From an uncultured Solirubrobacterales bacterium (GTDB taxonomy: Bacteria > Actinomycetota > Thermoleophilia > Solirubrobacterales > Solirubrobacteraceae): a stretch of 64,000 bases of DNA. Within the stretch, counting starts at the first letter, position 1. Every line of letters starts with the position of its first letter. Position numbers and translations under genes: made by a program. This document shows positions 25,435-29,021 of the stretch, one piece after another. The notes under the pieces were generated by a model that did no database searches, had not been told where the DNA came from, and saw only the letters and a list, made by a program, of their open reading frames with translations. The stretch covers positions 601,715 through 665,714 of the forward strand of contig CAWJVJ010000005.1 in the NCBI GenBank assembly GCA_963846265.1, in the 5' to 3' direction.

Positions 25435-25480
25435 TGCGACTGCGATTTCAACGACAGTCATTGAAAATCTCAATCGCATC
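25433..25480. promoter_or_regulatory. 48-bp near-perfect palindrome (operator or terminator) between dprA and thiD
   Basis: GATGCGACTGCGATTTCAAC-GACAGTC-ATTGAAAATCTCAATCGCATC; AT-rich relative to its surroundings. Confidence 0.55.
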
Positions 25481-25502
25481 CGATCGGGCTACGCTCGTGA
25501 CC

Positions 25503-26381
25503 GTGCCCAGCCCGGACCTGCCCCGCCCGGACCGCATCCCACGCGTCCTGAGCATCGCCGGCTCCGATTCGGGCGCCGGCGCCGGCATCCAGGCGGACCT
25601 GAAGGCGTTCGCGGCCTGCGGCGTCCACGGCATGACGGCGATCACCGCGATCACCGCGCAGAACACCGTCGGGGTGACCGCGGTCCACCCGATCCCTCCG
25701 GACGTGATCCTCGCCCAGGTCCGCGCGGTGGCGAGCGACATCGGCGTCGACGCGGTCAAGATCGGAATGCTGGGCGACCGCCAAACGATCGAGGCGGTGG
25801 CGCGCGCCCTCAGCGAGCTTCCAGATGAGACGCCGGTCGTGCTCGATCCGGTGATGGTCTCCGAGTCTGGGGCGGTGCTGCTCGATCCCGAAGCGCGGTC
25901 GGCTCTCGCCGAGCTGCTGCTGCCGAGGGCGACGGTGCTGACGCCGAACGTCCCGGAGGCGAGGACGCTGATCGGGGATGCGGACGGCGATCTCGATATC
26001 GAAAGCCTTGCCAGACGCGTCCACGCGCTGGGCCCGCGCGCGGTCGTCGTCACCGGCGGCCACCGCGAGGATGTCACCGACCTGTTCTTCGACGGCCACC
26101 GTCTGGTGGAGCTCCACGGTGAGCGTCACGAAGACGGAGCCGCGCATGGTTCGGGCTGCACCCATTCCTCGGTGCTCGCCGCCCGGTTGGCGTGGGGCGA
26201 CGACCCGCTCGACGCGGCACGCGCGGCCCGCGAGCTCGCCTCTCGCGCGGTGGCGCAGGGGCTGCGGGAGATCGGCGCCGGACCTGGCCCCGTCGATATC
26301 CTGGGGATTGCCTGCAAACCACACGTTTGGCCAGTTTTGGGCGCGTCAGGGCCTCCGGGCGCCGGTACGCTTTTGGCATAA
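25503..26381 (+). CDS. thiD: Hydroxymethylpyrimidine/phosphomethylpyrimidine kinase
   Basis: [57 protein letters not shown]; TACGCT 7 nt before the GTG. Confidence 0.96.
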
Positions 26382-26388
26382 TGGCCCA

Positions 26389-26637
26389 GTGCGTTTTCTG
26401 AGGATGAAGCCAGGCCATGGAGAGGTTCTGATCGCCGAGGGAGACGTCGAGCTCGCTGAGGATGAGCAGCGCCTGATCGAGGAGTTCCGCCGCCAGTTGG
26501 ACGCCGGGCTGTGGGCGGCGGTGCCGGTCTCGGGCCGGCAGGGACGGCGCGAGTCGATCATGGTCCGTTCGTTCGAGGACATTCCCTGGGACGCCGACCG
26601 CGTGATCTTCTTTCCGCGGGCGGCGGGCGGCAGGTAG
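26389..26637 (+). CDS. Small hypothetical protein, putative beta-grasp/ubiquitin-like (ends AAGG-R)
   Basis: 82 aa: MRFLRMKPGHGEVLIAEGDVELAEDEQRLIEEFRRQLDAGLWAAVPVSGRQGRRESIMVRSFEDIPWDADRVIFFPRAAGGR; GC-biased codon use; CATAAT 6 nt before the GTG. The coding call is firm; the Ubl assignment is inference. Confidence 0.7.
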   Translation: MRFLRMKPGHGEVLIAEGDVELAEDEQRLIEEFRRQLDAGLWAAVPVSGRQGRRESIMVRSFEDIPWDADRVIFFPRAAGGR

Positions 26638-26649
26638 GTCCACGCCGCC

Positions 26650-27288
26650 ATGGTGCTGGCGCTCGCAGCGACCGCGATTGTCGCTCTTGCGCTGCTGTCC
26701 GACCTGATCATCCCTCGGATCGACGAGCTGCGGAGCCGGTACAAGGCCAACCGGCACCGCGCCCCGACGTGGTCATATGACCCAGGACGCGAGCGCCGCG
26801 CGGAGGCCCGCGCGCGGGCGCTGCTGCGCTCGTGCGTCAACGAGGAGGAGTGGTCGATGTACCGCGACCTCGGGTTCCTCCGCGTGTGGGGGACGCTGGC
26901 CGACGGCCCCGATGACGCCGGCGGCACCGGTGGCGCCCCGTATGCCTACCTGATCTATCCGCACCGGCCGATCCTCGCCTACCTGGCGCAGACCCACCGG
27001 CTCCTCAACGAGTACTGCGTCACGTTCCCCGACGAGACCCGGCCCTACGGTAGCTCCCGGCTGCCCGACTCCGACGACGTGCTGGCCAAATGGATGGCGC
27101 TGACCGGCGACGAGCGGCGGCTGATCTCGACCGCCAACATGCACCTGCCGGGCCGGCAGCTCGACCCCGCGCAGGTGCGGCGCGACCTGTGGCGGCTTTC
27201 GCAGTGGGAGCGCGCGCGGATGCGCGATGCCTCCGGTCCCGGTGGCGCGGTGTCGCCCGATCCGGGCAATCGCCAATCGGCCGCCTAG
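26650..27288 (+). CDS. Hypothetical membrane-anchored protein, partner of the GG-terminated protein
   Basis: Hydrophobic residues 1-21, then a globular region [16 protein letters not shown]...YRDLGFLRV...YAYLIYPH...EYCVTFPD...[24 protein letters not shown]; 12 nt downstream of the previous stop. Confidence 0.8.
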
Positions 27289-27347: not shown

Positions 27348-29021
27348 ATGGCTGAGTTCGACCTGAAGCACAAGAGCCGCCCGCTCACCGAAGGCCCCGA
27401 GCGCGCCGCCGCCCGCGCCCAGCTGAAGGGCATCGGATACGACGACGAAGCGCTGGCCAAGCCCCTCATCGGCGTCGCCAACACGTGGATCGAGACGATG
27501 CCGTGCAATTTCCACCTGCGGGCCCTGGCGGCCAAGATCAAGGAGGGGATCCGGGAGGCCGGCGGGACGCCGATGGAGCTCAACACGATCGCGATCTCGG
27601 ACGGGATCACGATGGGCACGGAGGGGATGAAGGCGTCGCTCGTGAGCCGCGAGCTGATCGCCGACTCGATCGAGCTCGTCGCGGCCGCGCACATGTTCGA
27701 CGCGGTGATCGCAATCAGTGGCTGCGACAAGACGATTCCGGGGACGGTGATGGCGCTGTGCCGCCTGAACGTCCCGAGCCTGATGCTCTATGGCGGCTCG
27801 ATCTACCCCGGTCATTACAACGGTCGGCAGATCACCATCCAGGAGGTGTTCGAGGCGATCGGCGCGCACGCCGCCGGCCGGATCACCGACGATGAGCTGA
27901 CCGCGATCGAGGACGCCGCATCTCCCGGCGCGGGCGCGTGCGGCGGTCAGTTCACGGCGAACACGATGGCGATGGCGTTCGAGGTGCTCGGGATCTCCCC
28001 GGGCTACTCCGGGGTCCCCGCCACCGACCCGCACAAGGTCGATGTCGCCAAGGAGGCCGGACGGCTCGTCATGGACGTCCTGCGGCGCGGTCAGAAGCCG
28101 AGCGACATCATCACCCGCGACAGCCTCGAGAACGCGATCGCCGCGGTGGCGTGCAGCGGCGGCTCGACCAACGGCGTGCTCCACCTGCTTGCGGTCGCCA
28201 AGGAGATCGGCGTCGAGCTGTCGATCGACGACTTCGATCGGATCAGCGAGCTCACCCCGCTGCTGTGCGACCTGAAGCCCAGCGGTCAGTACGTCGCTCC
28301 GGACCTGTACGCCGCCGGCGGTGTCCCGCTCGTCATGAAGCGCCTGAAGGAGGCCGGGCTGCTCCACGAGAACGCGCAGACGGTCACCGGCAAGACCGTC
28401 GGGCAGCACGCGGACGAGGCTCAGGAGACCGAGGGCCAGCGGGTGGTCAGGCCGCTGAACGACCCGCTGAAGACGAGCGGAGGGCTGGTCATCCTGCACG
28501 GCAACCTCGCGCCCGACGGGTGTGTGGTGAAGGTCGCCGGCTACGAGCGGCGCAAGCAAACGGGGCGGGCGCGAGTGTTCGAGTCCGAAGAGGACGCGAT
28601 GGCGGCCGTCCGCGAGCAGGGCATCAAGCCCGGCGACGTCGTCGTCATCCGCAACGAGGGCCCCGCCGGCGGCCCCGGGATGCGCGAGATGCTCGCGGTC
28701 ACAGCCGCGCTCGTGGGGGAGGGCCTCGGCGAGGACGTCGCGCTTCTGACCGACGGCCGCTTCTCGGGCGCCACCCGCGGCCTGATGGCCGGGCACGTGG
28801 CGCCGGAATCCGTTCGCGGCGGCCCGATCGGGATCGTCCGCGACGGCGACGAGATCACGCTCGACGTCGACGCCCGCCGGCTCGACGTCAACCTCTCAGA
28901 CGACGAGATCGCGGCCCGCTTGAAGGACTACCAGCCGCCGGATCGTCCCGCTCCGGCCGCCGTGCTGGCGAAGTACGCACGGCTCGTCTCGAGCGCCTCG
29001 CTGGGCGCGGTCACGCACTAG
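27348..29021 (+). CDS. ilvD: Dihydroxy-acid dehydratase
   Basis: [64 protein letters not shown]. Confidence 0.97.

Follow-up and report, generated by a model that had tools for sequence, protein, structure and literature searches.

Organization and conservation of the X-Y locus

In a 64,000-nucleotide stretch of an uncultured Solirubrobacterales bacterium (assembly GCA_963846265.1, contig CAWJVJ010000005.1, positions 601,715 to 665,714; hereafter the window), two small genes, here called X and Y, stand side by side on the forward strand, with Y 12 nucleotides (nt) downstream of X (Table 1). X encodes a small protein that ends in Gly-Gly plus one Arg, and Y a membrane-anchored protein with a conserved cysteine. 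This pair matches no described family and is most likely an undescribed carrier or modifier system; a literature search found no paper describing it. The genes lie in the order RNase HII, yraN (on the opposite strand), comM, dprA, thiD, X, Y, ilvD, an L,D-transpeptidase gene (ldt), xerC and a sigma factor gene. An earlier reading of the same DNA (the original prediction) had placed the two genes, at this spacing, within a thiD-X-Y-ilvD-ldt block flanked by dprA and xerC, and its coordinates and gene anatomy stand.

Table 1. Features of the X-Y locus and its immediate neighbors (window coordinates)
Feature	Position	Strand	Remarks
Extended -10 promoter TGGCATAAT	26374-26382	+	Hexamer CATAAT at 26377-26382; read from the sequence and from locus comparison
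Gene X	26389-26637	+	GTG 26389 to TAG 26637; 82 amino acids (aa); C terminus DRVIFFPRAAGGR; read from the sequence
Gly80-Gly81 codons of X	26626-26631	+	Invariant; presumed functional C terminus
Arg82 codon of X	26632-26634	+	Dispensable cap after Gly-Gly
Gene Y	26650-27288	+	ATG 26650 to TAG 27288; 212 aa
Y transmembrane helix	26653-26715	+	Residues 2 to ~22; N-terminal hydrophobic helix
Y Cys123 codon TGC	27016-27018	+	End of strand 4; conserved in 100/100 order loci
thiD (hydroxymethylpyrimidine/phosphomethylpyrimidine kinase)	25503-26381	+	Open reading frame (ORF) translation; start uncertain, GTG 25497 or 25503
ilvD (dihydroxy-acid dehydratase)	27348-29021	+	ORF translation; conserved neighbor 3' of Y

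Y stands next to X, usually at 12-13 nt, in every one of the 100 loci compared within the order, and next to X also in all 30 loci of a sister family of the same class (f7). Y homologues are thus the consistent neighbor of X, as the original prediction had required, and this extends to the other subtypes described below. Solirubrobacterales carry the pair almost universally, and half of a sister family has it; among 41 close relatives, 32 have X, and a scan of species genomes yielded 443 matched stretches that code for an X relative. When 301 genomes were sampled evenly across the phylum, X was found in 11, all belonging to the same order, and a Y profile retrieved the same 11 genomes, two genomes of this order lacking both genes. 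One exception (G043) gave a distant Y-like match and has an X-like partner of its own, too diverged to be recovered with the X query. X proteins are 75-96% identical within the genus, 69-79% within the family and 63-70% within the order. X-Y is a single-copy core locus in fixed housekeeping synteny, and this fall of identity with taxonomic distance fits vertical inheritance.

Database searches returned more than 8000 homologues for each protein, the best 120 being at least 78-80% identical and originating from Solirubrobacterales metagenome bins. Their names read 'hypothetical protein', except that some X homologues at JGI are called 'molybdopterin converting factor small subunit'. Relative to the window copy, the differences are distributed 945/486/2601 over codon positions 1/2/3, with 2155 synonymous and 1036 non-synonymous codon changes, and 31 positions of X and 57 of Y are invariant across the order. 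Judged from these alignments, X and Y are real genes under purifying selection.

The block comM-dprA-thiD-X-Y-ilvD-ldt-xerC-sigma is kept throughout the order: thiD is the upstream neighbor in nearly all of the 100 loci, and ilvD went undetected between Y and ldt in 6 of them. X starts 7 nt past the thiD stop codon (TAA, 26379-26381), and the gap between Y and ilvD, 59 nt here, lies between -7 and +8 nt in the order's diverged families and between 20 and 100 nt in most others. Hence, as far as the gene spacing tells, X-Y is not the free-standing operon that had been proposed, since it follows closely on thiD and in relatives often runs straight into ilvD. Given the short Y-ilvD gaps and the lack of a terminator-like site after Y in a consensus scan, X, Y and ilvD probably form a single transcript in many genomes. 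An Rfam scan of the window gave no thiamine pyrophosphate (TPP) riboswitch and no other RNA match.

A conserved promoter in front of X

The CATAAT hexamer overlaps the thiD stop codon and ends 6 nt upstream of the GTG of X. A CATAAT- or TAGAAT-type box precedes the X start in 99 of the 100 related loci, at a spacing of 6-7 nt in 93 of these 99, and is itself preceded by TG in 95 loci, TGnCATAAT being the extended -10 form; the bases around the box vary freely. This promoter was recognized by comparative alignment of loci only, as the sigma-70/terminator consensus scan did not report it for want of a -35 element. Since the box is conserved at this spacing while its flanks diverge, it predicts a leaderless X mRNA beginning at the start codon, and the leaderless-type arrangement first noticed in the window alone is thereby backed by phylogenetic conservation. 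RNA-seq support was sought, and the locus turned up only in soil DNA runs. As to the start codon, the superfamily alignment places the first five residues of X on strand 1 of every other subtype, which favors GTG 26389 over an ATG five codons later. The thiD gene may be leaderless too, with a TACGCT -10-like box 7 nt before GTG 25503 (window 25480-25503).

The C terminus of X: an invariant Gly-Gly and a variable tail

The Gly-Gly is kept in all 100 loci of the order, in a C terminus of the form FFP[RPH]A[AS]GG, and in all 30 sister-family loci as FWPRA[AMT]GG. Among 65 cluster representatives having the last strand, 62 keep it, and the other three appear to be gene calls with frameshifts; it is also invariant in the alignment of the four-subtype X superfamily. 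What follows is quite different. In the order, the Gly-Gly is followed by Arg in 89 loci, by nothing in five, by a single Gly, Ser, Gln or Ala in four and by GR or VR in two, whereas in the sister family the tails measure 0-11 residues and are mutually unrelated (APER, ASPNRS, APGAHRPRS, ASAALAPTRAV, CA and others). The original prediction had turned on the conservation of this dipeptide, and here it proves invariant, while the residues beyond it are optional and unconstrained overall. Such a drop from invariance to noise immediately after Gly-Gly has, on comparative grounds, the signature of a C terminus exposed by processing. In one sister-family contig (L162, G468:C287), X has no stop codon and reads in frame into Y, giving a protein of 308 aa (...FWPRAAGG-APASP-M...); either the two genes are naturally fused or the fragmented bin was misassembled at this point.

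The beta-grasp topology and MoaD-like tail of X

An AlphaFold2 model of X built from a 23-sequence alignment (predicted local distance difference test score, pLDDT, 84.7; predicted template modelling score, pTM, 0.72) has strands at residues 3-8 and 16-19, a helix at 23-38 and strands at 41-48, 54-59 and 71-76, followed by a flexible tail at 77-82 (RAAGGR) that is disordered at 80-82. This beta-beta-alpha-beta-beta-beta topology is the beta-grasp order and is almost exactly the one guessed from the sequence in the original prediction. In a Foldseek search of the PDB, the top matches were all ubiquitin-fold domains (PB1, DIX, SUMO, ISG15, NEDD8, Caldiarchaeum ubiquitin and Ras-binding domains), but the scores are weak (best E 0.07, template modelling (TM) scores 0.45-0.55). 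X has no sequence match above chance level in Pfam, NCBIfam or the PDB, and PDB profile searches with X, Y and both superfamilies gave nothing significant. Two kinds of match were set aside: weak LcrG/PcrG and DUF6400 profile hits (E 0.1-0.15), attributed to chance, and giant proteins (P0350, P0378) matching X residues 15-60 in many stretches; P0350 is a helical surface protein with Ala/Glu/Lys-rich repeats, which makes the match compositional.

The two traits that X shares with ThiS and MoaD are the beta-grasp fold, seen in the model and with a weak Foldseek E-value, and a C-terminal Gly-Gly after the last strand. Its terminal pattern, D-x-V-I-F-F-P-x-x-x-G-G, is that of a MoaD-type last strand and tail. 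When the X superfamily was aligned by hhalign with ThiS, MoaD and CysO of the same genome, the alignment ran in register to the terminal Gly-Gly (pairwise P 0.0016); over the last 15 residues, identity is 47%. Among natural proteins, E. coli MoaD came out best in the PDB profile search, though without significance (E 0.93). X, in our assignment, is MoaD-like in its tail and fold class and is not a member of the PF02597 family.

The family MoaD/ThiS/CysO (PF02597), with its activating enzymes MoeB, ThiF and MoeZ and the JAMM maturase Mec+, is one of the closest points of comparison. Its members are small beta-grasp proteins whose last strand is followed by P-x-x-x-G-G: X has DRVIFFPRAAGG, and carriers of the same genome have GDEVTILPAVAGG and DTLVILPAMAGG. 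The tail of E. coli MoaD is GDEVAFFPPVTGG. Some of these carriers have removable residues after Gly-Gly, eight in the CysO of this genome, and they also form partner fusions, MoaD-MoaE in this genome being comparable to X-Y in one relative. Unlike them, X is missed by the family model, is never linked to an activating enzyme, JAMM, MoaE, ThiG, CysM or a ThrC-like enzyme, and has as its constant partner a membrane-tethered Cys protein of no described family; its fold matches also lean to ubiquitin, PB1 and DIX over MoaD.

Y is a membrane-tethered protein with a single universal cysteine

From the basic Arg/Lys stretch after its N-terminal helix and the positive-inside rule, the Y domain is predicted to be cytoplasmic. 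The AlphaFold2 model (pLDDT 77) gives an alpha/beta domain with helices at 45-62 and 65-74 and strands at 77-80, 98-102, 108-112 and 118-123, after which come a loop and helices at 141-153, 155-161 and 173-195. Cys123 is the only cysteine common to every subtype of the Y superfamily and, with Asp142 and Glu155, makes up the whole set of universal polar residues in the four-subtype alignment, while His105 and His165 are invariant only within subtype A. Y has no match in Pfam, NCBIfam, PADLOC, PHROG or the PDB. The only significant fold matches were in BFVD, namely A0A1P8DIP4 (E 4.4e-5, probability 1.00), with A0A1P8DIR1 as a second probable one (0.97). These two are unnamed viral proteins, probably from the same virus. 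A tblastn search with three Y-type proteins against 50,697 phage records found no match.

Other carriers and the activating enzyme of the genome

The window contains no ThiF, Prok-JAB or ThiS-family gene (E2, that is, ubiquitin-conjugating enzyme, genes and thiG were not searched separately by family). The earlier observation that no E1 (activating enzyme) or JAB gene lies within these 64 kb thus holds for the window, but the rest of the genome does encode an E1, a JAMM protease and carriers, which leaves a route in trans available. A single ThiF-family E1 gene (C15:56276) adjoins a CysO-like carrier gene with an 8-residue tail after Gly-Gly, a CysM-like gene and the sole Prok-JAB (JAMM) protease gene of the genome. 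Further carriers are encoded in a thiO-thiS cluster with thiE beside it, in a MoaD-MoaE fusion on contig C19 (the only place where a MoaE domain was seen), in a pair of ThrC-like and MoaD-like genes, and by one further MoaD-like gene; the carrier nearest to the window is a MoaD-like gene ~53 kb past its end. In total, a whole-genome search with PF02597 found five genes, and X was not among them. X is a sixth Gly-Gly protein and no replacement for ThiS or MoaD. The ThrC-like enzyme (C5:716992-718662) has an N-terminal zinc ribbon and stands beside a 90-aa MoaD-like Gly-Gly protein, an arrangement that looks like a MetM/MetO-type thiocarboxylate route to homocysteine.

From this gene content, the single E1 evidently serves several carriers, and activation of X in trans by this housekeeping enzyme is possible. 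E1 and JAB were present in all 22 order and phylum genomes tested, 20 with X-Y and two of the same order without it; neither JAMM nor E1 varied with the presence of X-Y or of the Arg cap, both enzymes being universal in the order.

A wider superfamily of X-Y pairs

When two distant Y-like proteins were included in the profile, 29 of 401 genomes of the phylum were matched, and in all 25 loci returned a small ORF ending in P-x-x-G-G lies directly upstream of the Y-like gene on the same strand. A homologue search with the distant Y-like protein P0394 gave only two relatives. Beyond subtype A, which comprises this order and the sister family, 12 loci of two subtypes were found via Y and a third subtype via X. 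The X proteins of subtype A end in FFPRAAGG or FWPRAAGG plus a tail, and Y has its anchor at the N terminus. Subtype B, from two other families of the phylum, has X proteins ending in RPLAGG-stop (also RPMAGG, RPMVGG and RPLQGG) and a Y anchored by two C-terminal helices; in subtype C, from a further family, X ends in PRLAGG-stop and the Y anchor is N-terminal. Subtype D is a paralogous pair in the same order, with X ending in RRPIAGG-stop and an N-terminal Y anchor. It is widespread in the order, adjacent in 26 of 26 loci, and present in the genome studied here (C8:94253-95148), where X' has 74 aa and Y' carries the motif CYCVRV...LPPTDRIAHLLLALRTDE. The residues of X common to all subtypes are G11, F33, G40, P66, G80 and G81, and those of Y are A51, G75, C123, P139, D142 and E155. 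The membrane location of Y seems to matter, as the tether is kept even though the anchor moves between the ends of the protein. None of the superfamily proteins has a Pfam, PHROGs or PADLOC match, and the database names seen were all 'hypothetical protein'.

In 20 of the 30 sister-family loci, a gene for a SufS/CsdA-like class-V aminotransferase divergently adjoins X-Y, with xseA on the other side; its best NCBIfam match is sufS (3e-43, below the trusted cut-off; e.g. L149:8082-9245 and L150:6562-7740). Taken as hints, the genomic contexts lean towards sulfur or cofactor metabolism. A third X-like gene in this genome is an orphan (C17:35768-35998, 76 aa, ending in AMGGG) without a Y-like partner. 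It is convergent with a 638-aa MoeA-fusion gene 18 nt away, as in one congener and not in two more distant genomes. Linkage to MoeA was considered as a clue and rejected as too sporadic, since it occurs at a single type-C locus (L147) and, in the case of the orphan, in two of the four genomes.

A candidate mechanism and its alternatives

What do these two proteins do together? We put at about even the chance that X-Y is a dedicated Gly-Gly carrier/Cys acceptor system, working in sulfur relay or in conjugation through covalent Gly-Gly/Cys chemistry that we infer. In such a system, Arg82, or the longer tails of relatives, would be trimmed to expose Gly81, whose carboxylate would be adenylated in trans by the sole ThiF/MoeB-type E1, the enzyme already serving ThiS, MoaD, CysO and the MetO-like carrier. 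Activated X would then react with, or deliver to, Cys123 of Y on the cytoplasmic side of the membrane, either as an X-thiocarboxylate or persulfide in a sulfur relay or as an X~Cys thioester in the manner of an E2. IlvD is an iron-sulfur (Fe-S) enzyme. We slightly favor the sulfur relay over the thioester version, with evidence that does not decide between them, because of the MoaD-like tail, the SufS/CsdA-like neighbor in the sister family and the link to IlvD. The original prediction of X as a ubiquitin-like protein capped by one Arg and working with Y is sustained as regards the beta-grasp order, the Gly-Gly and the obligate partner, while conjugation or a thiocarboxylate would be the step beyond them.

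Several observations weigh against a covalent carrier/acceptor system. In every subtype the pair lacks a linked gene for an E1, E2, JAMM, rhodanese or known acceptor enzyme, as judged by eye for the DNA flanking the other subtypes; E1 and JAMM also occur in the two genomes of the order without X-Y, so that their presence discriminates nothing. X falls below every ThiS/MoaD membership threshold (Pfam to E 10 and the PF02597 whole-genome search), and hhalign gives the X superfamily a probability of only 6-15% against the carriers of its own genome. For the fold of Y the PDB offers no known counterpart, and the comparison of Y with the MoaE domain of the same genome gave an hhalign probability of 0.3%, with no Pfam match either. 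Moreover, the thiD, ilvD and desulfurase neighbors may be inherited synteny, each within single lineages. The more specific proposal that Y is a minimal membrane-anchored E2-like enzyme, to which X, once trimmed and E1-activated, would be bound as a thioester at Cys123 before ligation to membrane-proximal proteins or an amine lipid, we hold to be unlikely. The order of elements in Y (helices, four strands, Cys, loop, three helices) does resemble that of an E2, without the HPN motif, and the E2 Ubc3 ranks second in the PDB Foldseek search, yet at a probability of 0.04 and a TM score of 0.15 (the full-length model including the transmembrane helix having been searched); hhalign comparison of Y with three E2s gave no significant match (E 0.6-0.9), and Pfam UQ_con and Prok-E2 do not match Y.

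A non-covalent complex is possible, if doubtful: X would be a beta-grasp adaptor that docks on membrane-bound Y, its Gly-Gly tail serving as a flexible docking peptide like the MoaD tail in the MoaE pocket, and the complex would scaffold or regulate a membrane-proximal process. Such a role would fit the absence of a linked activating enzyme in every subtype, the closest fold matches of X, which are PB1 and DIX interaction modules and not sulfur carriers, and the extreme conservation of the whole X surface, as expected of tight protein contacts. Beta-grasp proteins such as YukD likewise act without conjugation (PMC1779556; PMC12637312). An invariant Gly-Gly followed by hypervariable tails of 0-11 residues is, however, the pattern of a processed C terminus and not of a free-ended docking peptide; the tail of X is of the MoaD type, P-x-x-x-G-G, and the invariant Cys of the partner in four subtypes would be left to explain. 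That cysteine could also be read as the nucleophile of a cysteine peptidase dedicated to X, which, in the manner of Atg4, ULP or UCH, would trim the residues after Gly-Gly and/or free X from its targets, leaving activation and ligation to other enzymes. We consider this quite improbable. In its favor, subtype A shows 100% conservation of Cys123, His105, His165 and several Asp residues, X has removable tails there, and an X-Y fusion would need a cut at Gly-Gly. Three subtypes and part of subtype A nevertheless end at Gly-Gly and keep the Cys of Y, Y has no fold or profile similarity to any peptidase, and the genome already has its own JAMM for CysO-type tails. From the alignments, maturation of X is an unlikely core role for Y, since those three subtypes retain Y and its cysteine although nothing has to be trimmed. 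A shared mechanism of the papain protease type is improbable, since no His is conserved across the Y superfamily and there is accordingly no universal Cys-His dyad.

Two simpler readings fare worse than the dedicated carrier/acceptor system. That X is an ordinary ThiS or MoaD beside thiD might be suggested by the constancy of thiD upstream, by the MoaD name given to some homologues at JGI and by the orphan X-like paralogue beside the MoeA-fusion gene, but it is largely refuted and, to our mind, very improbable: the canonical thiO-thiS, MoaD-MoaE and CysO/CysM sets and two MoaD-like genes all exist in this genome and none of them is X, which fails PF02597, has no TPP riboswitch, is served by a promoter of its own within the last codons of thiD, and has Y, not ThiG or MoaE, as its obligate partner. 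We give still less credence to a mobile stress or anti-phage defence module. Bacterial ubiquitin-like operons (Bil, Bub, CBASS-Cap2) do act in defence, and the sole significant fold match of Y is to the two unnamed viral proteins. The pair is, by contrast, single-copy, in housekeeping synteny order-wide and of vertical descent, with no E1, E2 or deubiquitinase (DUB) genes alongside; six X/Y-type proteins had no PADLOC match, and there was no PHROG match and no tblastn match in the phage records. The stress/defence role entertained in the original prediction accordingly does not fit a single-copy vertical core locus with these features.

Comparison with known ubiquitin-like systems and implications

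Sulfur-carrier and ubiquitin chemistry have a common root in Gly-Gly beta-grasp proteins, and in the SAMP/TtuB precedent one E1 can serve both sulfur transfer and conjugation. To our knowledge, every well-studied bacterial case of such a protein has a recognizable E1, acceptor enzyme or E2/DUB. Archaeal SAMP/UbaA, Thermus TtuB/TtuC, bacterial Bil/Bub and CBASS Cap2 resemble X-Y in combining a Gly-Gly-terminated beta-grasp protein with an essential-looking Cys in the partner. They differ in having the E1, and usually an E2 and a JAB/DUB, in the same operon, where X-Y consists of just two genes; neither a UBC fold nor an HPN motif is detectable in Y, and the X-Y locus is core housekeeping and not a defence island. 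In Atg8-Atg4-Atg3 lipidation, a ubiquitin-fold protein with residues after its Gly (a single Arg in yeast Atg8) meets a Cys-dependent partner at a membrane. The likeness to X-Y, residues after a reactive Gly and a Cys partner at the membrane, is one of function only and is an analogy, not evidence, as there is no sequence or demonstrated structural kinship and there are no Atg7, Atg4 or Atg3 homologues. YukD/EssB of type VII secretion likewise joins a bacterial ubiquitin-fold protein to membrane proteins in Gram-positive and actinobacterial lineages, but YukD lacks a terminal Gly-Gly and belongs to a large secretion locus, whereas X has an invariant Gly-Gly and a single small partner.

The pair is found in common soil actinobacteria, with diverged paralogous pairs elsewhere in Actinomycetota. 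If the sulfur relay is correct, sulfur trafficking by protein thiocarboxylates would gain a membrane-bound acceptor, perhaps in connection with the supply of Fe-S or cofactors; if conjugation is correct, X-Y would be the simplest ubiquitin-like conjugation system known. Were Y to be E2-like, a two-gene system of this kind would be core to a major soil actinobacterial order, with at least four subtypes across Actinomycetota.

Surroundings of other subtypes

Two neighborhoods of other subtypes may be recorded here. The subtype D pair on contig C8 is followed by a small zinc-ribbon membrane protein and then by a 445-aa polytopic membrane protein. The subtype B loci (L139-L145) share a conserved neighborhood encoding an NlpC/P60 hydrolase, an SCP2-like protein, a glyoxalase-fold protein, a short-chain dehydrogenase/reductase (SDR) and a small membrane protein with ETGQLPYVISGGFGGFGLLLMG.

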